Origin: an uncultured Alphaproteobacteria bacterium
GTDB taxonomy: Bacteria; Pseudomonadota; Alphaproteobacteria; Rs-D84
NCBI GenBank assembly: GCA_947053455.1
Contig: CAMRSV010000001.1
Span: 36,937-100,936, forward strand
Direction: 5' to 3'
DNA: 64,000 nucleotides
The position numbers and the translations under genes were made by a program. The notes under the pieces are model-generated. The model was not told the DNA's origin, did no database searches, and saw only the letters and a list, made by a program, of their open reading frames with translations. Numbering within the stretch: the stretch's first letter is position 1; each line of letters starts with the position of its first letter. Positions 5,670-64,000 of this stretch are shown here, in pieces.

Positions 5670-5915
5670 ATCACAGAGAATTTCTGTGATGGGGCGTCGA
5701 AACCCCTTATAGAGGGTCCGAATAAATTCGGACATTAATGGCACAAGGAAATAATTAATTATTTTCATAGTTGTGCCGCCTTCCAACCACAAAAGGTTGG
5801 AGGATGGCTGAATATATTGAATAGGCCTGCAATTCTCTATAATTGTTTCGAACCTCCAACCACTTGAACTTTTCCAGTGGTTTTTATTTATTAAAAGATT
5901 CAATGGAGTATAGAA
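5670..5915 (+). promoter_or_regulatory. conserved structured 5' leader, copy 1 (candidate riboswitch/attenuator) upstream of cysteine-rich secreted protein gene
   Basis: Perfect IR ATCACAGA-N5-TCTGTGAT (5670-5690). Box GGGGCGTCGAAACCCC (5691-5706). Hairpin CCTTCCAACC-ACAAAA-GGTTGGAGG (5777-5807). Then GAACCTCCAACCACT fused to terminator-like hairpin AACCACT..AGTGGTT+TTTTT (5850-5886), then RBS GGAG and ATG 5916. The same architecture recurs at three other loci. Confidence 0.7.
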
Positions 5916-7995: not shown

Positions 7996-9729
7996 TTAGC
8001 ACGGCATTTTCACTGCATCACGCATTTTATTTACAAATGCGTCCAGTGACATTGTTTCCTGCTTTTCTACCCCAAGGGTACGCAGTGTTACATTTTTATC
8101 GGCCTGCTCTTTCTCGCCTACGACGGCGATAATCGGGGTTTTGGCCATTGACAGTTCACGAATTTTATAGTTTACCTTTTCATCGCGTAAATCGGCGTGC
8201 GCATTAACACCGGCATCACGCAGCGCGGTTACAACTTCATTCGCATATTCTTTGAACTTTTCTGAAATGGGGGTTACCACCACCGGTTCCGGCGACAACC
8301 ACAGCGGCAAATTCCCACCCGTTGATTCCAGCAAAATACCCATAAATCGTTCAATGGAACCAAGCATTGCACGATGCAACATAATCGGACGATGTTTTTC
8401 CCCGTCTTCGCCGATATAGGACAAATCAAACCGTTCCGGCAGATTCATATCCAGCTGAACTGTCCCGCACTGCCACGTGCGTCCCATGGAATCCTTTAGA
8501 TAATTGTCAATTTTCGGGCCATAAAACGCTGCATCGCCTTCTGCAATCTCGTATTCAATGCCGTTCGCATCCAACGCATGACGCAACGCGCCCTCCGCCT
8601 TGTCCCAGATTTCGTCCGATCCAATACGGAATTCCGATTCTTTTCGCGTCGCCAATTTCATTGAAATTTTTTCAAATCCGAACTTGCTGTAAATATCCTT
8701 AATAAAGCGCAGGATTTTTACAACCTCGGTCTCAAGCTGTTCTTCTGTGCAAAAGATGTGTGCGTCGTCCTGGGTAAATTCGCGTACACGCATCAGGCCA
8801 GACAGGCCGCCGGCCGCCTCATATCTGTTAACCTTGCCAAATTCCGCCAAATACATCGGCAGGTCTTTATAAGACTTTATTCCCTGACCAAATACCAGCA
8901 TTCCACCCGGACATGACATCGGTTTTACACAGAAAGTCTTGCCATCCTGTGTTTTACCGGAATAATTATGTTCGCCATATTTTGCCCAGTGGCCACTGCG
9001 TTCCCACAGGCACCTATCCATAACCGCCGGGGTTGAAATTTCAAGGTAGCCCGCCCGTTCTTGACGTGCACGAACATATTCAATCAAGCGCCGATAAATT
9101 CTATATCCCTTGTCATGCCAGAATACCGCACCCGGCGCGTATTCCGGTTCAAAATGGAACAAGTCCATATCACGCCCAAGCTTTCGGTTGTCGCGCGCGG
9201 CGGCCTCTTCTTGCATTTTAAGGAACGCGTCCAATTCCTCGCGCGTTGCAAATGCATCGACATAAATGCGCTGCAACATTTTATTTTTTGCATCACCCTT
9301 CCAGTATGCGCCGGCAACCGAACGGATTTTAAACCCGTCGCGTGGCAAATCCTTGGAACTTTCCACATGCGGGCCACGGCACAAATCCGTAAAATCGCGG
9401 AACGAATAAATCGAGAGTTGTTCACCCGCCGCATCATATTCACGCAACCATTCGGTTTTATACGGCTGCGCGGCAAAAATTTCCATTGCTTCGTCGCGCG
9501 AAACAAATCGCTGTTCAAACCGGCCATTTGATTTTATCAACGCGCGCATTTCCTTTTCAATTTTTTCAAAATCTTCGTTGGTAAATCTGTGTTCGGTATC
9601 AAAATCGTAATAAAAACCGTTTTCAATCGCAGGACCGCCACCAAATTTTACATCCGGATATAAGTTCTGAACCGCCGCCGCCAAAACATGCGCCAACGAA
9701 TGTCTTATTGTTTCAAGTTCATATGACAT
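7996..9729 (-). CDS. thrS: threonine--tRNA ligase (lacks N-terminal TGS domain)
   Basis: 577 aa starting at the N2/editing-like region (SLAHVLAAAV..NGFYYDFD), followed by class II core motifs. AAGGA RBS precedes ATG 9729. Confidence 0.9.
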   Translation of the reverse strand: MSYELETIRHSLAHVLAAAVQNLYPDVKFGGGPAIENGFYYDFDTEHRFTNEDFEKIEKEMRALIKSNGRFEQRFVSRDEAMEIFAAQPYKTEWLREYDAAGEQLSIYSFRDFTDLCRGPHVESSKDLPRDGFKIRSVAGAYWKGDAKNKMLQRIYVDAFATREELDAFLKMQEEAAARDNRKLGRDMDLFHFEPEYAPGAVFWHDKGYRIYRRLIEYVRARQERAGYLEISTPAVMDRCLWERSGHWAKYGEHNYSGKTQDGKTFCVKPMSCPGGMLVFGQGIKSYKDLPMYLAEFGKVNRYEAAGGLSGLMRVREFTQDDAHIFCTEEQLETEVVKILRFIKDIYSKFGFEKISMKLATRKESEFRIGSDEIWDKAEGALRHALDANGIEYEIAEGDAAFYGPKIDNYLKDSMGRTWQCGTVQLDMNLPERFDLSYIGEDGEKHRPIMLHRAMLGSIERFMGILLESTGGNLPLWLSPEPVVVTPISEKFKEYANEVVTALRDAGVNAHADLRDEKVNYKIRELSMAKTPIIAVVGEKEQADKNVTLRTLGVEKQETMSLDAFVNKMRDAVKMPC

Positions 9730-36486: not shown

Positions 36487-36986
36487 TAAAAAAATGCGAC
36501 CATTCCGGATGCACCAAGGCCGGAACATGTCGCGCGCCCAAAACGCGCGACCTTAAGGAATACTGGTTCTTTTGCCAAGAACATGCCGCAGAATACAACA
36601 AAAATTGGAACTATTACGCCAATATGACCCCCGGCGAGATTGAGGCGGAATGGGAACGCGAAACATTCGGGGCGCCGCTGAAAGATAAAAATAGCGCCAA
36701 TGCAGATGCGGCCGATTACGCAAAATTTATAAATGATTTTTTAACAGGCCGCGCATCATTTGATAACGCATCGACGCGACGCACACTGCCCGGCCCGGTT
36801 ATGACGGCGTTAAAAACATTGGATTTGCCAGTAACGGCGACATTACGCGAAGTTGGTGCACGTTACAGGGCACTTGCCAAGAAATACCATCCGGACACGG
36901 CGGCCGACAAAAAATCCGCGGCCGATAAATTTGCAAAAATCGCCGACGCATACGAAACATTAAAAAAGCATTTTGCTAAAAAATAA
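36483..36986 (+). CDS. J-domain (DnaJ-like) protein with N-terminal Cys cluster
   Basis: C-terminal J-domain signature (YRALAKKYHPD) and N-terminal C-x4-C..C..C motifs. Confidence 0.7.
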   Translation: MIKKCDHSGCTKAGTCRAPKTRDLKEYWFFCQEHAAEYNKNWNYYANMTPGEIEAEWERETFGAPLKDKNSANADAADYAKFINDFLTGRASFDNASTRRTLPGPVMTALKTLDLPVTATLREVGARYRALAKKYHPDTAADKKSAADKFAKIADAYETLKKHFAKK

Positions 36987-37618: not shown

Positions 37619-37795
37619 TTAACCCCTCTTTTTATTACAAAAAAACCACTAAAAATCAGTGGTTGGAGGTTCGAAACAATTATCAGGAATTGTGGGCTTA
37701 TTTAGTTATATCGCCACCCTCCAACCCATGGTTGGGGGAAAGTTTTTTCCTGATAAGGGGTTTCGACACCCCGTCCGCGCAACACCCGCCGACAA
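37619..37795 (-). promoter_or_regulatory. conserved structured 5' leader, copy 2
   Basis: Read in gene orientation: GGGGTGTCGAAACCCC box, hairpin CCCCCAACC-ATG-GGTTGGAGG, then GAACCTCCAACCACT-GATTTTT-AGTGGTTTTTTT terminator-like hairpin, then RBS and ATG. Confidence 0.7.
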
Positions 37796-50608: not shown

Positions 50609-50633
50609 AAAACGGGGCATTGCCCCGTTTTTA
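50609..50633. terminator. bidirectional terminator
   Basis: AAAACGGGGCATTGCCCCGTTTTT. Confidence 0.8.
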
Positions 50634-51527
50634 CTTTAATTCAAACAAATGCATTATTATATCACCACCTTCATATGTTGCCTCGTCTGCCAAGCCGGTA
50701 ACATTGGTGTTATTAGTATTTGTATTCCATTGACCCACGGGGGCATATGATGTCGTCGCGGACACATATTTTTCATGTGCTGTGTCGATAAAAAATTGAA
50801 CAATATTATTCCCCAAAATCCCAGCATAACCCACCGGTTGATCAAACACTGCCATATACGCATATGACACGGATGCGGATCGCCCATCCAATGCATCAAT
50901 TAGATTTGGTTTGTCTGAAATCCCAGGCCCCTTGTAACGTGCAACAAACAGGTATGTTCCCGGTCCTATGGTTCCACCCATACACATTTCATCAACCGAA
51001 AAATCATCTATGTTTGAACTGTTTATATTCTGATTTATTTTCGCACAGGATTTTACCCGACGCCATACGCTTATGTCTGATTTCGGAATAAATTTTTCAA
51101 CCGCGGACAATGTCATAAATTTATTTACATTGCCAAGCCCATCTGGCTGTGCATTGGCATTGCGACTAAAATTAACTTCCGGACAACCTATTGCGCCATA
51201 TGTGCATACCGCGCGATGAAGCCCACCCGTACAGTAATGACCCATGCCGCAATTGACACATTCACTGTTATTCATCAAGTACTGGCCAGGCTCGCACCAC
51301 TTGCCCACCCAATAATCTTTCGCCCCCACCCGCAGGCGCAGCGCCCCGGTCGGCGCAGCGGATGAATACATTGCACCATACCATTTCTCGTCTGCAATAG
51401 AAACCGCCAACGCAGGCGAAGTATTTCGCGTGGAATTAAGTGGCACTGACCGGTCGCCAAAATGCAACATGCGCGCATAACATGCGGCATTAAAAAATAA
51501 TGTAAAAAATAAAACTATATATCTCAT
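50631..51527 (-). CDS. secreted cysteine-rich protein, paralog 3 (298 aa)
   Basis: Signal peptide present. The N-terminal half carries C..G.Y....C..C..G.YC.GG repeats related to the other paralogs, and the C-terminal half is Cys-poor. Confidence 0.65.
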   Translation of the reverse strand: MRYIVLFFTLFFNAACYARMLHFGDRSVPLNSTRNTSPALAVSIADEKWYGAMYSSAAPTGALRLRVGAKDYWVGKWCEPGQYLMNNSECVNCGMGHYCTGGLHRAVCTYGAIGCPEVNFSRNANAQPDGLGNVNKFMTLSAVEKFIPKSDISVWRRVKSCAKINQNINSSNIDDFSVDEMCMGGTIGPGTYLFVARYKGPGISDKPNLIDALDGRSASVSYAYMAVFDQPVGYAGILGNNIVQFFIDTAHEKYVSATTSYAPVGQWNTNTNNTNVTGLADEATYEGGDIIMHLFELK

Positions 51528-54961: not shown

Positions 54962-54987
54962 AAAACGGGGCGACGCCCCGTTTTTAT
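54961..54987. terminator. bidirectional terminator
   Basis: AAAAACGGGGCGACGCCCCGTTTTT. Confidence 0.8.
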
Positions 54988-55538
54988 TATCGCTGAAAAG
55001 AATACATCAATCTTTTCAATGGCCGCATCAACGGATTAGACTGCTGAATATCAACCATGGACTGTAACTGCCGTGACTGGGTGATAATGTCATGTGCAAA
55101 CTTAAATGATTGCATACGAAAAGTATCGCTGCTGGATGTGCGGTCATATTCCCAGTTCTGAACAGATTTACAAAAATTATAATACGCCTGACACAAGTCA
55201 TCGTTTTCATACATTGCCGCATCGGACGCATTAATAACAAAATCCATCGGGCTTTGAACAATATAATATGCCATTGTGGTTTCTTTTGCATTTTTTTCTT
55301 CCGTCCATTTGTCGACGCGCGAACGCCACATACCCAAAGTATACGCACGCGAAAAATAAATTTCCGGATTTTGCGCAACCCCGTTTATATATACCAACGC
55401 ACGACCTGCCAAATAACGCGATTTAATCGGCATCTTGCCCCAGCGCCGGGACAACGATTCCCTGGCCAAAATTTTGAAACAGGCAAAACCAGATTTTATC
55501 GCATTATAAACCTGAATATCTGACACTTTTTTTTGCAT
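54987..55538 (-). CDS. hypothetical protein
   Basis: ORF on the minus strand; no recognised family. Likely start MQKKVSD. Confidence 0.4.
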   Translation of the reverse strand: MQKKVSDIQVYNAIKSGFACFKILARESLSRRWGKMPIKSRYLAGRALVYINGVAQNPEIYFSRAYTLGMWRSRVDKWTEEKNAKETTMAYYIVQSPMDFVINASDAAMYENDDLCQAYYNFCKSVQNWEYDRTSSSDTFRMQSFKFAHDIITQSRQLQSMVDIQQSNPLMRPLKRLMYSFQR

Positions 55539-55749: not shown

Positions 55750-57582
55750 ATGAAAATTCGTAATATTGCAATTATCGCGCACGTTGACCACGGAAAAACA
55801 ACATTGGTTGATAACATGCTAAAACAAGCTGGAACATTCCGTGAAAACGAACGTGTTGAGGAACGCGTCATGGACAGTGGTGATATCGAACGCGAACGCG
55901 GAATCACCATTTCGGCAAAACCGACATCAATCCAGTGGGGCGAATATAAAATAAACATCGTTGACACCCCGGGGCACGCCGATTTTGGTGGCGAAGTGGA
56001 ACGTATTTTATCAATGGTTGATGGCGTCGTTTTGCTGGTCGATAGCGCCGAAGGCCCCCTGCCCCAGACAAAGTTTGTATTAAGCAAGGCATTGAAACTG
56101 GGCTTGCGGCCAATTGTGTGCATTAACAAGGTAGATAGAAGCGACGCCCGTCCGGACGAAGTTCTGACCGAAACATTTGATTTGTTTGATAAATTGGGTG
56201 CGACGGATTCGCAACTTGATTTCCCATATCTGTATTCCGTCGGACGCGACGGTTGGGCCGTTCGTGATTTAAATGACGAACACAAAGACCTGACACCGCT
56301 GTTCCAATTGATTGTAGACCATGTGCCGGCACCAGACTGCAACGGTGACAGATGCCAAATTGACGCACCGTTCCGCATGTTGGCCACAACGTTAGAGGCA
56401 GATCCCTATGTTGGCCGAATTCTGACTGGAAAAATTGAATCTGGGACGGTAAAGGTCGGACAATCGGTCAAAGCAATAAATATGAAGGGCGAATTTATCG
56501 AAAACGCCAAAATAACAAAAATTATTGAACATCGCGGCGTTGAAAAAATCTCGAGAGAGAGTGCCTCGGCCGGCGATATTGTCGTGCTTGCCGGATTTTC
56601 CAAGGCAACTGTGGCGGATACCCTGTGCGACACGTCTGTTACCGAACCGATTCCCGCCATGCCGATTGACCCGCCGACACTAACCATGACATTCTTTGTT
56701 AATACATCACCTTTGGCGGGGAAATCCGGAAAGAAGCTGACGTCACGAATGATTGGCGAAAGACTTTTCAAAGAGGCAGAAACAAATATCGCCCTGCGTG
56801 TAACACAGAGTGCAAACAACGAAGCATTCGAGGTATCCGGGCGCGGTGAACTGCAACTGGGTATTTTGATTGAAACCATGCGCCGCGAAGGATTTGAACT
56901 GTCCGTGTCACGTCCGCGCGTTGTTATGATTGAAGGGCCAAACGGCGAACAACTGGAACCGATTGAAGATGTCGTAATTGACGTTGACGATGAATTCTCG
57001 GGTGTGGTCATAGAAAAAATGACCAAACGCAAGGCAACAATTACCGAAATGAAATCGTCCGGCGCCGGCAAAACACGCATAGTTTTTTCCGCACCATCAC
57101 GCGGTTTAATTGGCTACCTGTCGGAATTTAGAACGGATACACGTGGCACAGGTATCATGAACCGCGTATTTTCCGAATACAGTGAATACCGCGGTCCGAT
57201 AATGCAATACCGACCGGGCGTGCTGGTATCTATGGAAAACGGTTCGGCCGCAACGTATGCATTATTCAATCTGCAGCCGCGCGGGACCTTGTTCATCGGC
57301 CCACAAACAGAAGTTTATTCCGGCATGATAATCGGCGAACACAGCAAGGAAAACGATTTGGAGGTAAACCCCATAAAGGGCAAGGAACTGACCAACATGC
57401 GTTCCGTTACGGCCGATGAAAAACTGTTTCTGGCACCGCCACGGCGCATATCGCTGGAAGAAGCGCTGTCATATATCCAGGACGATGAATTGGTTGAAAT
57501 AACACCGGCGACTATACGCCTGCGAAAAAAGGAACTGGATAGTAACATGCGCAAAAAGATGCACAAAAACACGGGGGCATAA
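55750..57582 (+). CDS. typA: translational GTPase TypA/BipA
   Basis: MKIRNIAIIAHVDHGKTTLVD G1 motif and EF-G-like domain order; 610 aa. Confidence 0.93.
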   Translation: MKIRNIAIIAHVDHGKTTLVDNMLKQAGTFRENERVEERVMDSGDIERERGITISAKPTSIQWGEYKINIVDTPGHADFGGEVERILSMVDGVVLLVDSAEGPLPQTKFVLSKALKLGLRPIVCINKVDRSDARPDEVLTETFDLFDKLGATDSQLDFPYLYSVGRDGWAVRDLNDEHKDLTPLFQLIVDHVPAPDCNGDRCQIDAPFRMLATTLEADPYVGRILTGKIESGTVKVGQSVKAINMKGEFIENAKITKIIEHRGVEKISRESASAGDIVVLAGFSKATVADTLCDTSVTEPIPAMPIDPPTLTMTFFVNTSPLAGKSGKKLTSRMIGERLFKEAETNIALRVTQSANNEAFEVSGRGELQLGILIETMRREGFELSVSRPRVVMIEGPNGEQLEPIEDVVIDVDDEFSGVVIEKMTKRKATITEMKSSGAGKTRIVFSAPSRGLIGYLSEFRTDTRGTGIMNRVFSEYSEYRGPIMQYRPGVLVSMENGSAATYALFNLQPRGTLFIGPQTEVYSGMIIGEHSKENDLEVNPIKGKELTNMRSVTADEKLFLAPPRRISLEEALSYIQDDELVEITPATIRLRKKELDSNMRKKMHKNTGA

Positions 57583-57597
57583 ACCCCGTGTTTTTTT
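57570..57597 (+). terminator. rho-independent terminator after typA
   Basis: CACGGGGGCATAAACCCCGTGTTTTTTT. Confidence 0.8.
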
Positions 57598-57670
57598 ATT
57601 CATAACATCGGCTAAATCCAGCATATATTCATTTGTTGAAAATGCGATTAAAAACATATATTATTCATAT

Positions 57671-58513
57671 ATGAAGATAAAAAGACTTTTCCTATTTGCC
57701 GGTTACGACCCAAAGGGTATAATTGACGAAGCACTGCTGTACTACGTTCGCGCATTATCTAAATTGGGCGACGTGGTTCTTTTTATGGACAGTGACTGCA
57801 GCGCAGCGCAACTAAAAAAACTGGCACCGTACGTTATATGGGCAGGTGCCACGCGACACGGCGAATACGACTTTGGCTCGTACAAGCGTGCATATGAATA
57901 CGCGGTGGATAAAAAAATTTTAAATAAATATGATTTCGTATACTTGGTAAACGATTCTGTATACGGACCGATGCGCCCGCTTAAACCAATAATCACCGGA
58001 TTAGAGGCACGAAAGCTGGACGCATTCGGCATGATTAAGAATCCGAACCATAATGCGCCGCATATCGGGTCATGGTTTATCGGCATGCGACCACGAGTAT
58101 TTTTGTCACCTATGTTTGATAAATTTATGCGCAGTATAACACGCCAACCAGACAAGGGCACGGTCGCCACTTTATACGAGCATGGATTTACCGCAATGAT
58201 AGAACGCGCCGGATTTTCATGGGGATGTAAAAAGACCATATTTAATCGCGGCGTATACAATCGGGTAAAGGCGCAATTTAAATCCAATGTGCCGTTCATA
58301 AAAAAATTATCATTTACGCGACATAACGGCTCACTTGGTCGACAAATAAATTATGTTCTGAAACATGCGGATGCACCCGCACGCATCGCAACGCTTGCGT
58401 CGGCACGGCGCACAATGGGCACGGAATATATCGACTGGTTGCTCCATGGCAGTAAAATGACGATGATTGTGCGTTTCCTGAAATATATGTGGAAAAAATA
58501 CAAGAACGGATAA
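57671..58513 (+). CDS. putative polysaccharide biosynthesis glycosyltransferase (RgpF/rhamnan-synthesis-F-like)
   Basis: 280 aa with weak by-eye resemblance to the RgpF family. First gene of the glycan locus. Confidence 0.35.
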   Translation: MKIKRLFLFAGYDPKGIIDEALLYYVRALSKLGDVVLFMDSDCSAAQLKKLAPYVIWAGATRHGEYDFGSYKRAYEYAVDKKILNKYDFVYLVNDSVYGPMRPLKPIITGLEARKLDAFGMIKNPNHNAPHIGSWFIGMRPRVFLSPMFDKFMRSITRQPDKGTVATLYEHGFTAMIERAGFSWGCKKTIFNRGVYNRVKAQFKSNVPFIKKLSFTRHNGSLGRQINYVLKHADAPARIATLASARRTMGTEYIDWLLHGSKMTMIVRFLKYMWKKYKNG

Positions 58514-58516
58514 AAA

Positions 58517-59350
58517 ATGCAAAAACAAAAGCGCATTGCCGCAATAACCATGGCTCGAAATGACGACTTCTTTCTGGGGCGATGGATTAAATATTATGGA
58601 AATGAAATAGGACGTGAAAACCTGTACGTTTATCTGGACGGACTAGACCAATCTGCACCACGCGATGCGCGTGATGTAAACATAACAAAACTGCCCCATG
58701 TGGAAGAAGCCGTACAACGTGGTGACAAACGCAGAATACTGCTGCTATCGGATTTGGCTAAAAAACTTTTTAATAATGGATACGACATTGTCATAGGATG
58801 CGACTGCGACGAATTTTTGATTGTAGATCCGGCGAAAAACAAAACTCTTGCCGAATATTTATCCGGGATACGAAATGTAACATCGGTATCGGGCCTTGGG
58901 TTAGATGTGGGCATGGATTTAAATACCGAATCCGCATTAGATATGCGCGCCCCATTTCTAACACAGCGTAGATATGCCCTGTTGTCGACGCGCTATACAA
59001 AACCCGTCGTAATGTTCCGCCCGGCAACCTGGGGCAGCGGGTTTCACAGTGTAAAGGGTAAAAATTTTCACATTGATAAAAATCTGTATCTGTTGCACTT
59101 TGGCGGCGTTGACTATAACATGATAAAAAATAAAATCGGCGACCGAAACCCATCATGGGAAAAACACCTAAAAAAACGCGCACGAACAATTGAAACAATC
59201 ACAAAAGTGCATCGCCGAAATGCATCACTTAAAATCGCGCGTACGCTGCAAACCTTACTGCGCCCTGTATACGACTGGAACAAGCCTGCGATGCTGGGGC
59301 TAAAAATGGTCACAACAATACCAGAACGCTTCAAGAAAATCGGTATATAA
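58517..59350 (+). CDS. putative GT-A fold glycosyltransferase (DXD-type motif CDCDEF)
   Basis: 277 aa with an acidic DxD-like motif after a beta-strand (IVIGCDCDEFL). Co-oriented and adjacent to the previous gene. Confidence 0.4.
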   Translation: MQKQKRIAAITMARNDDFFLGRWIKYYGNEIGRENLYVYLDGLDQSAPRDARDVNITKLPHVEEAVQRGDKRRILLLSDLAKKLFNNGYDIVIGCDCDEFLIVDPAKNKTLAEYLSGIRNVTSVSGLGLDVGMDLNTESALDMRAPFLTQRRYALLSTRYTKPVVMFRPATWGSGFHSVKGKNFHIDKNLYLLHFGGVDYNMIKNKIGDRNPSWEKHLKKRARTIETITKVHRRNASLKIARTLQTLLRPVYDWNKPAMLGLKMVTTIPERFKKIGI

Positions 59351-59376
59351 AAATGGGGTGCATCCCCCATTTTTTA
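59350..59376. terminator. bidirectional terminator
   Basis: AAAATGGGGTGCATCCCCCATTTTTT. Confidence 0.8.
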
Positions 59377-60378
59377 TTTCCGGTCAATCAATTTCAAAAT
59401 GCGCCGCCGATATTTTCGTGCGCGCATTGTTTGCACAAAATCCAGCGCACCGTCACGATACATTTTATCAAAATATATCCGTGCCGCATCCATGCCACCT
59501 GGAAACCCGCGTGCAGCGCGCATAACAATTATGAAAAATGGCCATAAAAATTCACGTGACCATGTCCTTAATTGTTTTGTATTGGAATGTTTTTTTGCAT
59601 ACAAGTATGATGCCGCCGTCGCACGTGATATATTTTCAAAAACGTTACGTGATGTTGCGGCATTTAATGCCGACGACATATTCGGCACATAATAGTACAG
59701 TGGCGTCCGCAAAATAACCGCATGTGGCCGACGCAGCAAAATCTCGGTCCACCAGAGAAAATCTTCAGCAATTTTTATGGACGTGTCAAATTTCATTCCA
59801 GAAATAAATTTGCGGCGCATTAAATGCATCCATGGATAGCAATGCCGAATGCGAAACAATCCAAACGAATGGTTTCGTTCCGTTGAATACCCCAGCAAAT
59901 TATCCGTCACGACACCCGTCACGCACGCCGGATTATAAACATGCGCCAAGGATTTTGGCACAAAATCCGCCGTATCAAGACCCGAACGCAACAGACGACG
60001 CATCCCCATTTGTGCACGCGCGTCAAAGCGAAAAGAAACAGTGTCGGCATTATTCTTATCCGCCAGGCATGTTGTTATTTCAAACAATTGCGGATGTATA
60101 AAATCATCGCTGTCTATAAATATCACATATTGCCCACGGGCAAGCTTTATACCGTCATTTCGCGCCGCAGATACACCCCCATTTTCTTTGTGGATTACAC
60201 GTATACGCTTGTCACGACGCGCATATTCATCCAGTATTTTTCCACTGTTGTCCGGACTGCCGTCGTCGACACATATCGCCTCCCAGTCCGTTAATGTCTG
60301 ACTCATCACACTGTCTAGACATCTGCGCACATATCTTTCAACTTTATATACTGGTATTATTACACTTACTTTGGGCAT
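59374..60378 (-). CDS. family 2 glycosyltransferase (GT2), tandem copy 1
   Basis: N-terminus VSVIIPVYKVERYVRRCLDSV..DWEAICVDDGSPDNSG..DSDD is the classic GT2 fold. Confidence 0.88.
   Translation of the reverse strand: MPKVSVIIPVYKVERYVRRCLDSVMSQTLTDWEAICVDDGSPDNSGKILDEYARRDKRIRVIHKENGGVSAARNDGIKLARGQYVIFIDSDDFIHPQLFEITTCLADKNNADTVSFRFDARAQMGMRRLLRSGLDTADFVPKSLAHVYNPACVTGVVTDNLLGYSTERNHSFGLFRIRHCYPWMHLMRRKFISGMKFDTSIKIAEDFLWWTEILLRRPHAVILRTPLYYYVPNMSSALNAATSRNVFENISRATAASYLYAKKHSNTKQLRTWSREFLWPFFIIVMRAARGFPGGMDAARIYFDKMYRDGALDFVQTMRARKYRRRILKLIDRK
60124..60378. repeat. 255-bp block 100% identical to 60922..61176 (5' ends of adjacent GT2 genes)
   Basis: Direct comparison: CACATATTGCCCACGGGCAAG...CTTACTTTGGGCAT is identical at both sites. 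Confidence 0.85.
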
Positions 60379-60381
60379 AGC

Positions 60382-61188
60382 TTATCCCCTAAAAAATTTT
60401 CCAACATACGGCAATTTCTGCAGTTTACGCATACGCCACAACCATATCAATCCGTGTTCACGCGCAAACGTGCGTCGAAACTTTTTACTGGCCTTGTAAT
60501 CCAGTTTCATTTTTTTTCTTTTTTCCACATCACGCGAATTCAACAACGACAAATCGTTGAACATATAGTGATATAGCACATCGGGCACAACCACCAAAAG
60601 GCGCATACGCGTCAAAATCCGCAGCAGGAAATCCATATCCTCCATTGTCATCATGCCAACCGGAAAAGAAATTCCGCAATCGGATAAAAACTTACGCGAG
60701 AAAACATACCGCCACACATACCCATCCGACAATGCATTTGTTCGTTTAAAAATTCCAAATGTAGTACGCACAACGCGCATACGGTTGTACAACAATCCTT
60801 TTGTATATTTAACATTTGTGACAAATCCGCTTACCGCGGCATCCGCACCGGTACTAACCAGTGCATCAATCATTTTCTCATAATAATCTGGGTCGATAAA
60901 ATCATCACTGTCCATGAAATGCACATATTGCCCACGGGCAAGCTTTATACCGTCATTTCGCGCCGCAGATACACCCCCATTTTCTTTGTGGATTACACGT
61001 ATACGCTTGTCACGACGCGCATATTCATCCAGTATTTTTCCACTGTTGTCCGGACTGCCGTCGTCGACACATATCGCCTCCCAGTCCGTTAATGTCTGAC
61101 TCATCACACTGTCTAGACATCTGCGCACATATCTTTCAACTTTATATACTGGTATTATTACACTTACTTTGGGCATTTTTACTGTCAT
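60382..61188 (-). CDS. family 2 glycosyltransferase (GT2), tandem copy 2
   Basis: The first ~85 aa are identical to copy 1 (MPKVSVIIPVYKVERYV...ARGQYV), and the C-terminal domain is distinct. An alternative start MPKVS lies at 61176. Confidence 0.85.
   Translation of the reverse strand: MTVKMPKVSVIIPVYKVERYVRRCLDSVMSQTLTDWEAICVDDGSPDNSGKILDEYARRDKRIRVIHKENGGVSAARNDGIKLARGQYVHFMDSDDFIDPDYYEKMIDALVSTGADAAVSGFVTNVKYTKGLLYNRMRVVRTTFGIFKRTNALSDGYVWRYVFSRKFLSDCGISFPVGMMTMEDMDFLLRILTRMRLLVVVPDVLYHYMFNDLSLLNSRDVEKRKKMKLDYKASKKFRRTFAREHGLIWLWRMRKLQKLPYVGKFFRG
60922..61176. repeat. 255-bp block identical to 60124..60378
   Basis: See paired repeat. Confidence 0.85.
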
Positions 61189-61190
61189 GG

Positions 61191-62216
61191 TTATTTATTT
61201 CGGGGTCGAATAAAATCATATATTTTTGCACGAACTTTGGCAGCCCACTTGAACGGCGGATTGTCCAACGCGCCAATTTTATTCATTTCTACAAAGCATT
61301 CACGCGCCGCATTCAAATCATGCGCATTGTCTATGTATTTTATCTTGCTGAACGCCTTTTTTATAAAAAACCATTTAAAATTGTCGGTCCAGCACCGTGT
61401 CTGATATTCATTGGCACTTTTATGATACAACATGTACGCGTCATTGATTCCGATGCACAATCCCTGCAGTATATGCAATGCCTTGGCCGACAAAACAATT
61501 CCACCAAAATTCGGGCGATAAAAAACCAAGGGCATGCGCGTAATTGTAGTTCGCGGCTGCTTAAGCAAAAGTGCCGACCACCACGGAACATCCTCAAACA
61601 AAATACCTTTTATAAACGCGATATCTTGAATCATTTCGCGCCGATACAGGTTTTTCCAAACCTGGCAATGCTTTACCAGCCATTTTCTTTTCAAATTAAA
61701 GGGGTTGTGCGTACGTTCGGTCGCATATTTAAATATATCGTCCGTTACACGTGTTTTTATTTTTGCCGCATCATACCGGCGCCGTATACTTTTCGGTACG
61801 ACATTATCTGTGTCCAAACCCAATTTATGCCGTATCATCATTTTCGGCCGATACGAACGGTCGTACGTAAACGCCACCATATCTGAATTGTCGCGGCGCG
61901 CCAGGGTATATGTCACCTCCATCGCCTGGGGATGCAAAAAGTCATCACTGTCCAGATACATGACATAATCGCCGCGTGCATGCTTCATTCCAGTATTTCG
62001 CGCAACGGACAGTCCCATATTTTCCTGCGTAAAGACCTTGAAGCGTTTATCGCGCGCGGCATATTCTGCCAAAATCTTGCCACTATTGTCTGGGCTGCCG
62101 TCGTCGACGCATATCGCCTCCCAGTCGGTAAATGTCTGCGCAATCACACTGTCTAGGCATGCCCGCAGATATTTTTCAACCTTAAAAACAGGTATAATTA
62201 TTGAAATTGCTGGCAT
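61191..62216 (-). CDS. family 2 glycosyltransferase (GT2), tandem copy 3 (diverged)
   Basis: MPAISIIIPVFKVEKYLRACLDSV..DWEAICVDDGSPDNSG..DSDD. The 5' DNA is partly similar to copies 1 and 2. Confidence 0.85.
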   Translation of the reverse strand: MPAISIIIPVFKVEKYLRACLDSVIAQTFTDWEAICVDDGSPDNSGKILAEYAARDKRFKVFTQENMGLSVARNTGMKHARGDYVMYLDSDDFLHPQAMEVTYTLARRDNSDMVAFTYDRSYRPKMMIRHKLGLDTDNVVPKSIRRRYDAAKIKTRVTDDIFKYATERTHNPFNLKRKWLVKHCQVWKNLYRREMIQDIAFIKGILFEDVPWWSALLLKQPRTTITRMPLVFYRPNFGGIVLSAKALHILQGLCIGINDAYMLYHKSANEYQTRCWTDNFKWFFIKKAFSKIKYIDNAHDLNAARECFVEMNKIGALDNPPFKWAAKVRAKIYDFIRPRNK

Positions 62217-62228
62217 GCCCGCCCCTTT

Positions 62229-63134
62229 TTATTTATTCATCTTGTTTATCATGACATCAGCAACACTGCCCGGAATCTGGCGCTTTGCCCACGGGCTTTT
62301 GTACGCCGTTTTCTGGAAAAACGCACCTGATGTGTATTTATCGAACAATTCCTGACTAAATGGTTCATTTGCAATTGACCACCACAGGGCATGCGTCGGA
62401 TCTTGATCTACATGCGGCATCTTTTCAAAATACTTGGCGGCCAATGGGTCGTTTTGAACCAGCGCCTTAAACATCAATTGATGCATGAAGTAATCAAATT
62501 CGCGTGGCTCGTTCAACCAGAAATTATGAATCACTGCACGCCATGCCTCTAATAGATATGCCCCCTTGCGGCCACGTATAAAACAGTTCTGAATAAAACT
62601 GTACGGGCTGCCAACATTTTCACCGGCCATAAATACAAAGAAATCTTGGTCTACGATATATTGCGGTATGGGCGATGTCACAAACCCCGTCGAATCCAGC
62701 CAGAATCCCCCGTGATTATGCAACAGTTCAACCCGGCAAATATCCAAGAAATGCGCGACCGCGATTTTGCCCTCATGAAACTTGTCCATAATTACGCCAG
62801 GCAAGTCTATGTAATTGAACAAAGTCTTTTCATCAAGCAACAATACTTTTTGTGTCAGGTTCTTTTCCGCACTGCGCATGCATGCCTTGACCAAATCGGG
62901 CATCGGGTTGTACCCCCAGAAAACGAACACGTTTTCATTTGCGTCGTTTTTTACCGCTGGCTTTTCTGCGACAGTACCCGGCGCCGGAACGTAACGCGCC
63001 AGATAGCGCGGTATCGCAACGGTTGCAACGGCACACCGATGGGCGCGGCGCTTATCACGCGGCCACCACAGCGGGTTTAATACGTGCGCGCGCAACGCAA
63101 TGTCCGTCAATGCTAATGTTCTGCTTAATTTCAT
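62229..63134 (-). CDS. putative polysaccharide-synthesis glycosyltransferase (Caps_synth/GT32-like)
   Basis: 301 aa. The layout resembles capsular polysaccharide synthesis proteins, assigned by eye only. Confidence 0.4.
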   Translation of the reverse strand: MKLSRTLALTDIALRAHVLNPLWWPRDKRRAHRCAVATVAIPRYLARYVPAPGTVAEKPAVKNDANENVFVFWGYNPMPDLVKACMRSAEKNLTQKVLLLDEKTLFNYIDLPGVIMDKFHEGKIAVAHFLDICRVELLHNHGGFWLDSTGFVTSPIPQYIVDQDFFVFMAGENVGSPYSFIQNCFIRGRKGAYLLEAWRAVIHNFWLNEPREFDYFMHQLMFKALVQNDPLAAKYFEKMPHVDQDPTHALWWSIANEPFSQELFDKYTSGAFFQKTAYKSPWAKRQIPGSVADVMINKMNK

Positions 63135-63214
63135 AAGGCACCCCTTTTAGTTATAAATTACAATAATATAAATGTTTTTACCATTCGTCTAAATCATGTA
63201 GCATTGTTTCCTCC

Positions 63215-64000
63215 TTATTCTTCTGTGACTGACATTTCATCCGCATCATCTTCGGCGGGGCCGGTTGTCATCTCTTCGGCAATACCCGACGCACGTGCCA
63301 TGATTTTTTCTAGCAATTCTTTCTGAACATCTTCGCGGTCACGCAGCCATTGGCGTGCATTTGCCTCGCCCTGCCCCATGCGCTCACTATTATATGAATA
63401 AAAGCTACCCGCCTTTTCAATCAGGTCGTATTTCACACCCATATCCAGAATTTCACTAACGCGACTTATACCTTCGCCGTACATGATTTTGAAATCAACC
63501 GTCCGGAATGGCGGTGCGACTTTGTTTTTAACAACCTTAACACGTGTTTCGTTACCAACAATGTTTTCCTTGTCCTTTATTTGACCGGTGCGGCGAATAT
63601 CCAGACGTACCGACGCATAGAACTTTAACGCATTACCACCAGATGTCGTTTCCGGGTTTCCAAACATAACACCGATTTTCATACGTATTTGGTTGATAAA
63701 GATAAGAAGAGTGTTACTGCGCGAAACAGAACCAGCAAGTTTTTTCAAACTCTGACTCATCAATCGCGCTGTGGTACCGACAAATGAATCGCCGATATTT
63801 CCCTCTAATTCCGCACGCGGAACCAGCGCCGCCACACTGTCAATTACAACAACATCAACCGCACCAGATTTTACCAACGTATCTGTGATTTCCAATGCCT
63901 GTTCACCGGAATCGGGCTGCGATATAATCAGATTTGATACATCAACACCCAGTTTTTTCGCGTAACTTGGATCCAGTGCATTTTCCGCATCAATATACGC
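63215..64000 (-). CDS. recA: recombinase RecA (C-terminal part; gene continues beyond window end)
   Basis: The track ORF from an internal Met matches RecA core and C-terminus (..[32 protein letters not shown]..). The reading frame stays open to 64000. Confidence 0.9.

Follow-up and report, generated by a model that had tools for sequence, protein, structure and literature searches.

Recurrent gene conversion probably keeps the first 85 codons of two neighbouring glycosyltransferase genes alike in an uncultured gut alphaproteobacterium

Introduction

How can two neighbouring genes for different enzymes keep exactly the same beginning? The question is raised by a locus of an uncultured alphaproteobacterium (assembly GCA_947053455.1, contig CAMRSV010000001.1, forward-strand positions 36,937 to 100,936), from which we analysed a stretch of 64,000 nucleotides (nt), here called the window. 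Within it, two adjacent genes for family 2 glycosyltransferases (GT2), A and B, share the 255 nt that encode 85 residues at their N-termini and differ in what follows. An earlier note, made from the letters of the window, had drawn attention to this repeat, had proposed recent gene conversion or duplication as its origin, and had suggested that it could serve to vary a surface glycan. In this study, we relate the repeat to independent assemblies, to a sister genome and to the predicted structure of the encoded enzymes. We conclude, with a probability of roughly 0.88, that the first 85 codons of A and B are kept alike by recurrent gene conversion, that is, by concerted evolution. The conversion process itself is already well known; here it takes a clean and well-bounded form, confined to one sub-domain of two bacterial enzymes.

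Results

Genes A (59374..60378, 334 amino acids), B (60382..61188, 268 amino acids, or 264 from an inner ATG) and C (61191..62216, 341 amino acids) all lie on the minus strand, on which the earlier note was silent, and are spaced by 2–3 nt behind a Caps_synth gene and recA. Each matches Pfam PF00535 (Glycos_transf_2) far above the curated cut-off of 23.3 bits (A 130.5, B 136.3 and C 130.5 bits; E about 1e-38, with 8e-38 for A and 1e-39 for B). Together with the protein comparison, these matches agree with the initial description of A and B as adjacent GT2 genes with a common 5′ module and differing downstream parts. The C-terminal 240 amino acids of A belong to a rare subfamily, with 10 database matches at E ≤ 1e-10, whereas the C-terminal half of B is shorter and of a different type. 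C is a full-length paralogue of A (45% protein identity in a full-length alignment) and the orthologue of a long GT2 gene in more distant lineages (45–62% identity in the C-terminal part).

Direct comparison confirmed that 60124–60378 and 60922–61176 are the same at 255 of 255 bases, at an offset of 798, and this exact match cannot be extended by even one base at either end. On the minus strand, the first copy comprises codons 1–85 of A (ATG at 60378–60376), and the second comprises codons 1–85 of B when counted from a start at 61176, or 5–89 from a start at 61188. The outer end of each copy (60378 and 61176) is the A of an ATG, and the 3′ end falls one codon short of the first residue that distinguishes the families: the sequences first disagree at codon 86, where A has Ile and B has His, and this His is invariant across the B family in an alignment of 19 of its proteins. 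Homology continues in A through the DSDDF (DxD) motif (60100..60123, minus strand), where 18 of 24 bases match B at 60898–60921; beyond this point, identity profile and alignment reveal no DNA similarity between the two genes, and their C-terminal parts have 31% protein identity over about 100 residues. The modules are in direct orientation and 543 bp apart, so that the 798-bp repeat unit consists of the remainder of B, a 3-nt spacer and one module.

This pair is the sole long repeat in the window, the runners-up being imperfect and 41–46 nt long. Neighbouring GT2 pairs without a visible conversion tract, from five other contigs (L099, L101, L103, L104 and L107), are 70–75% identical in the module with longest exact runs of 11–31 nt, and chance is thus excluded as the cause of the 255-nt identity. 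The module of C (61962–62216) is likewise homologous, as the earlier note held, at a lower level than the 80% or so given there: we found 69.8% identity to the repeat over 255 nt, and 74% in a local BLAST alignment. An Rfam scan of the 64-kb window returned zero family matches and a tRNA scan (ARAGORN) likewise none, so that the repeat holds no RNA element of the kinds covered by these scans.

The evidence that recombination maintains the identity comes from the closest other lineage, L006 (ERZ14235891, a 327-kb contig). It has the same recA-Caps-C-B-A-...-typA order, and its DNA is 79–89% identical to the window gene by gene and about 85% identical across the locus. Within L006, the A and B modules are 93.3% identical, with nt 61–203 (143 bases) exact, while each is just 80–81% identical to the window module. 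When A and B of both genomes are compared over nt 1–255, 39 sites group the sequences by genome and 0 by orthology; over nt 256–330, this pattern is inverted, with 0 sites grouping by genome and 24 by orthology. In line with these counts, a neighbour-joining tree of the modules pairs A with B inside each genome, whereas the C-terminal parts follow orthology. Between species, 48–50 nt sites differ, at 39 of which A and B agree within either genome, and 28–29 of the 42–43 codon differences are synonymous only, for which reason protein-level selection is not the cause of the identity. When sites are roughly polarised by outgroups, 12 shared-derived ones fall to the window lineage and 17 to that of L006, from which it follows that each lineage was homogenised after the split. 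Further, the exact tracts have different ends each time (255 nt in the window, 143 nt in L006 and 63 nt in L098). Comparison with other strains had been suggested as a check. A second strain, described below, has modules equal to those of the window, and the sister species L006 shows the within-genome grouping of A with B, which supports conversion.

In L006 (10811–11100 versus 8973–9260), the A module also agrees with the C module without a mismatch over 24 nt around the GMKHARG codons, at a place where L006 A differs from B. This stretch may represent either a small conversion from C to A or ancestral sequence that was kept, and on this observation all three paralogues may exchange segments.

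Concerted evolution is generally accepted to work through interlocus gene conversion, and the most probable mechanism here is non-reciprocal homologous recombination between the A and B modules, which recurs and homogenises both copies. In the window genome, the latest conversion probably covered the full alignable stretch and left 255 identical bases. At the 5′ side, the end of C precedes B and the end of B precedes A; because these upstream sequences are unrelated, a conversion tract has to end at the start codon. The 3′ limit lies just ahead of the DxD motif, from where the C-terminal halves differ and carry family-specific residues, the first of them His86 of B. We infer that tracts running further 3′ are removed by selection or blocked by falling homology.

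Before such a mechanism is entertained, the repeat itself has to be real. All data are short-read metagenome assemblies built with k-mers shorter than the 255-bp repeat, at which contigs indeed break; an assembler might accordingly have collapsed one module or copied it into two places, and the identity would then not be biological. We consider this highly improbable. A separate metagenome assembly (ERZ13632118, L001) matches the window at 100% here and covers all three genes, as does a contig of another strain (GCA_964017585.1, L009; 99.3% identical), in which both modules equal those of the window. The end of C, the B module and the B remainder stand on one contig (L005), and the B remainder, the A module and the A remainder on another (L017); these four contigs come from different samples and assemblers and have unique sequence on both sides of a module. 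The contigs that do break also behave as expected. Three SPAdes contigs from other samples (L002, L004 and L015) stop exactly 55 nt into a repeat copy, and Logan contigs from six runs (L010–L014 and L016) stop exactly 30 nt into the B copy, which is de Bruijn graph behaviour at a true repeat for k = 55 and k = 31 (30 being k − 1). Moreover, A and B are intact, in frame and have orthologues, and the sister genome L006 (35x coverage) resolves two copies with 17 differing sites and shows the same phenomenon. The concern about assembly collapse raised in the earlier note is thereby largely refuted. In practical terms, the repeat breaks short-read assemblies at the C-B-A locus.

If the repeat is real, the copies might still be identical for reasons other than recurrent conversion. 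Strong purifying selection, or constraint at the nucleotide level through an embedded RNA or regulatory element, could in principle hold them identical without recombination, and the module does encode the most conserved part of GT2 enzymes. We give this explanation almost no probability, as orthologous modules diverge freely by 19–20% between the two species, the paralogues share the same state within each genome at the synonymous-only codons, and the Rfam scan found no family anywhere in the window. A single recent partial duplication, at the building of the B/A pair and too young to have diverged, would need no ongoing conversion. It would account for the 100% identity and for a repeat unit of one gene length, and the swapped 5′ ends of A and B (see below) point to a structural event inside the module. 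Nevertheless, the C-B-A arrangement is common to the window and L006, in which the flanking genes have diverged to the extent given above, and the structural event is therefore old; the junctions in the two genomes are homologous; and modules that are 19–20% diverged between species are yet 100% and 93% alike within genomes, with 39 genome-specific shared sites and 0 orthology-specific ones. A one-off duplication is consequently very unlikely. Of the two origins proposed in the earlier note, recent conversion is upheld by the comparison of window and L006, and recent duplication is not, since C-B-A predates a split of about 15% in DNA.

What does the converted module encode? In an AlphaFold model of B (predicted local distance difference test score, pLDDT, 90), strands at residues 4–10, 32–38, 59–63 and 84–87 alternate with helices at 14–25, 45–55 and 69–79, followed by DSDD at 89–92. 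In this model, the module (residues 1–85) corresponds to β1-α1-β2-α2-β3-α3 and the start of β4 of the nucleotide-binding half of the GT-A fold, directly before DSDD. Residues 4–213 of B match GalT1 (PDB 5hea) at E = 1e-35, and residues 1–105 align with all of GalT1 5hea, a Bacteroides enzyme (3bcv), the chondroitin synthase K4CP (2z86) and SpsA (1qgq). With these solved GT2 enzymes of the GT-A fold the locus shares an N-terminal Rossmann-like nucleotide-binding half followed by the DxD motif; it differs from them in that the C-terminal part of A belongs to its rare subfamily, for which no solved relative was identified. A and B accordingly have the opening section of the nucleotide-binding half in common and diverge in the other half, which presumably holds the acceptor; they may use the same donor.

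The history of the locus was followed along recA and typA trees, which have the form ((window, L006), L103, L104), L101, (L098, L099). Between recA/Caps_synth and RgpF/typA, the window and L006 carry C-B-A. Four contigs (L103 and L104–L106) carry Caps-C-A, that is, C and A without B; four others (L098, L099 and L101/L102) carry Caps-B-C′, in which B is followed by a C-type gene, each time between recA and typA; and L107 has another GT2 gene and then A. The 5′ ends are informative as well. Among outgroup proteins of the A subfamily, 7 of 7 are extended at the N-terminus by 2–22 amino acids and 5 of 7 have K or R in place of the canonical Met, and the canonical Met start is found in 50 of 84 members of the B family. 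In the window and L006 these features are reversed: B, which stands right after the C stop, has a four-residue extension (MTVK-M and MTLK-K), and A has none. Such swapped ends fit a crossover within the module, and C-B-A probably arose, and was maybe lost in some lineages, in this way. A crossover inside the module would insert the 798-bp unit of B remainder plus module into an ancestral C-A locus; by the reverse route, deletion between two modules would remove the unit, and B would be lost.

From the presence or absence of B between C and A, together with the swapped ends, the repeat unit appears to be a unit of gene gain and loss over evolutionary time. A bolder version, which we put forward as tentative and on balance doubtful, is that the 85-codon module serves recombination as a handle by which acceptor-specific halves of glycosyltransferases are exchanged like cassettes in the recA-typA island, with B having entered C-A by crossover and able to leave likewise. 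If true, lineages, and possibly cells within a population, would differ in surface glycan by gain, loss or amplification of the unit, and the locus would show by a natural example that two GT2 subfamilies can interchange the first 85 residues of the GT-A nucleotide-binding half. A scan of a genome collection with the B-family alignment yielded, among the matches listed, distant GT2 genes (≤ 41% identity) of unrelated gut metagenome-assembled genomes and no close relative, the back-translated patterns being too degenerate.

A more active role had been suggested in the earlier note, in which the direct repeats are a substrate for RecA-mediated deletion or amplification that could switch or vary a surface glycan. 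The first part of this suggestion agrees with established knowledge, as 255 bp of perfect direct homology, 543 bp apart, is far beyond the minimal length for RecA-dependent recombination. By its geometry, such recombination would delete B and one module copy cleanly and leave A intact, or duplicate B; the predicted deletion product, C followed by intact A, matches the arrangement of related lineages, and surface-glycan loci are typical targets of diversifying selection. That the repeats exist for frequent loss or amplification of B, as a programmed or selected variation device, is nonetheless unlikely. After deletion nothing is left from which B could be restored other than by re-acquisition, and deletion is therefore not a switch. 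The B-less lineages are distant (the C-terminal part of A is 51–59% identical) and not strain-level variants, the same module is present in 5 of 5 strain-level variants of protein A, and each contig reaching upstream of A runs on into B. No variant contig was seen, though contigs ending at the repeat cannot reveal deletion or amplification.

Nor does the locus contain anything beyond ordinary homology: it lacks a recombinase gene, and tracts of the phase-variation type were not noticed, although no systematic tract scan was run. For a dedicated switching element, the neighbours were found to be recA, Caps_synth, glycosyltransferase genes, RgpF and typA, with no significant inverted repeat. The recA gene does lie about 2 kb away, as had been pointed out (63215 to beyond 64000, minus strand). 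RecA acts in trans, and for this reason its nearness is without mechanistic meaning. Exact-pattern scans of the JGI metagenome collection, with the module/A junction and the conserved module core, gave zero matches, and the organism thus appears to be absent from that collection, as far as these patterns can tell.

Within B, the longest homopolymer noticed, again without a systematic tract scan, is A8 at 60510–60517. On the coding strand it forms part of 60510–60524, where the A8 run, a G and an A6 run encode KRKK. Typical phase-variable tracts are longer than this one, and the L006 orthologue retains the lysine-rich peptide.

Strain-level differences are concentrated elsewhere. The block 59267–59833, which takes in the 3′ end of A, a hairpin and the 3′ end of a 277-amino-acid Glyco_tranf_2_4 gene, is hypervariable between strains: L009 is 98% identical to the window there and 99.5–100% identical in the flanks, and L017 is 100% identical in the B remainder, 99.6% in the module and 91% in the A remainder. 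To judge from these comparisons, the block looks like an allele imported by recombination. We considered the module as the anchor of this exchange in L009 and L017 and rejected it, as the dense divergence, which runs from 59833 down to 59267, sets in some 290 nt past the module.

Discussion

The genome-specific sharing between A and B in two lineages, its abrupt end at codon 85 and its largely synonymous nature lead us to favour recurrent gene conversion. Some points speak against taking this reading, or what we build on it, too far. Perfect identity may be slightly overstated: one or two true differences between the copies could be hidden, because both run through a single edge of a short-read assembly graph, in which a bubble of low coverage may be popped. 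As to the direction of conversion, A to B or B to A, the shared module favours neither, being about 65% identical in protein to the outgroup modules of the B family and the A subfamily alike. The crossover origin of C-B-A is drawn from the four-residue extension and the gene order, and other rearrangement paths are possible. Lastly, the enzymatic function of both A and B is a prediction.

Codon 1 of B gives no polarity either, since ATG and AAG are just one change apart there. We had also considered 'GVSAARNDG' as a B-type signature that would indicate conversion from B to A, and rejected it, as the same motif occurs in outgroup proteins of the A subfamily.

Classic cases of concerted evolution are tufA/tufB and the rRNA operons. 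For bacterial paralogues more broadly, concerted evolution by interlocus gene conversion has been defined and surveyed (Wang and Chen 2018, PMC6053082). Our locus resembles such cases in that within-genome paralogues are closer than between-genome orthologues, synonymous sites included, and in its sharp tract boundaries and recurrence in separate lineages. It differs in that conversion is confined to one 85-codon sub-domain of enzymes with different C-terminal halves and does not extend over whole genes of the same function, and in that the partners stand directly next to each other, with their starts 798 bp apart.

The nearest biological parallel is the lgt locus of Neisseria, with tandem glycosyltransferase paralogues in one glycan locus, homology between them, and locus variants without the genes in between. 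The variant locus of strain 15253 is said to be of recombinational origin. In this lipooligosaccharide locus, the tandem glycosyltransferase genes include the homologous pairs lgtA/lgtD and lgtB/lgtE (PMC2191774); strain 15253 keeps just lgtA and lgtE, two of the five lgt genes (PMC2192810), and rapid lgt variation works via poly-G tracts (PMC2192423). Our locus differs in that no such tract was noticed here, and in that organism and glycan are unrelated. In our literature search, which covered the lgt reports in part, gene conversion between bacterial glycosyltransferase paralogues was not found beyond this Neisseria work.

Another comparison is offered by the pilE/pilS system of Neisseria, where antigenic variation comes about as silent cassettes donate sequence by gene conversion (reviewed in PMC11130364). 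Alike is the non-reciprocal transfer between homologous segments bounded by conserved sequence. That system, in contrast, is dedicated, acts at high frequency, draws on silent donors and creates diversity, whereas here conversion would remove diversity between two genes taken as expressed, and nothing points to a dedicated mechanism.

These findings have consequences both for the analysis of such genes and for our understanding of them. Phylogenies that rest on the N-terminal part of these GT2 genes will give a false picture of orthology. At the level of the protein, the first three β-α units of the GT-A nucleotide-binding half can be word-for-word common to enzymes with different C-terminal halves, and this sharing of a module has some relevance to glycosyltransferase engineering and to the diversification of glycan loci in uncultured gut Alphaproteobacteria.

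Gene starts, neighbouring genes and minor observations

B probably starts at 61188 (MTVKMPKV), 12 nt upstream of 61176, because the B orthologue reads AAG where the inner ATG stands and starts from the ATG upstream of it. No Shine-Dalgarno sequence can be recognised ahead of either in-frame candidate. AGGGG-type sites precede A and C, that of A lying inside the last codons of B (…TTT AGG GGA TAA). Translation of B may be coupled to that of C, whose stop precedes the ATG at 61188 by 2 nt.

Directly upstream of C lies the Caps_synth gene (PF05704; 62229..63134, minus strand), the first of the glycan cluster after recA, and its synteny is kept in all relatives examined. Downstream, two plus-strand genes (57671..59350) recognised by profile matches, an RgpF-like gene (57671–58513), convergent to C-B-A, and the Glyco_tranf_2_4 gene of 277 amino acids (58517–59350), convergent to A, complete a small glycan island between recA and typA. 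Between the convergent stops of A and the 277-amino-acid gene, a GC-rich hairpin with A and T runs on its sides (AAAAATGGGGTGCATCCCCCATTTTTT; 59352..59378, without assigned strand) is probably a bidirectional terminator that would end the C-B-A transcription unit. It was not called by the promoter/terminator consensus scan, in which counts were overall at or below the shuffled expectation. Three related GC-rich hairpins with A/T-run flanks (AAAACGGGGC...GCCCCGTTTTT), at 50609–50654, 54962–55007 and 59352–59397, look like intrinsic, possibly bidirectional, terminators.

Away from the locus, a 45-nt inverted repeat (5820–5864 and 37658–37702), 87% complementary with arms 31.8 kb apart, contains GGTTCGAA, which is like a tRNA T-arm; yet ARAGORN and Rfam find no tRNA in the 64 kb.

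The recA-typA island (55750–64000 of the window, and its counterparts in L006, L098, L099 and L101–L107) keeps its position across related gut Alphaproteobacteria and varies in content. No flippase, polymerase or transporter gene was seen inside it between recA and typA. The number of Caps_synth genes in the island is one or two and that of GT2 genes two or three, in differing orders; L101/L102 have a Stealth-family gene besides, and in L107 there are also GT61 and HtrL-like genes.

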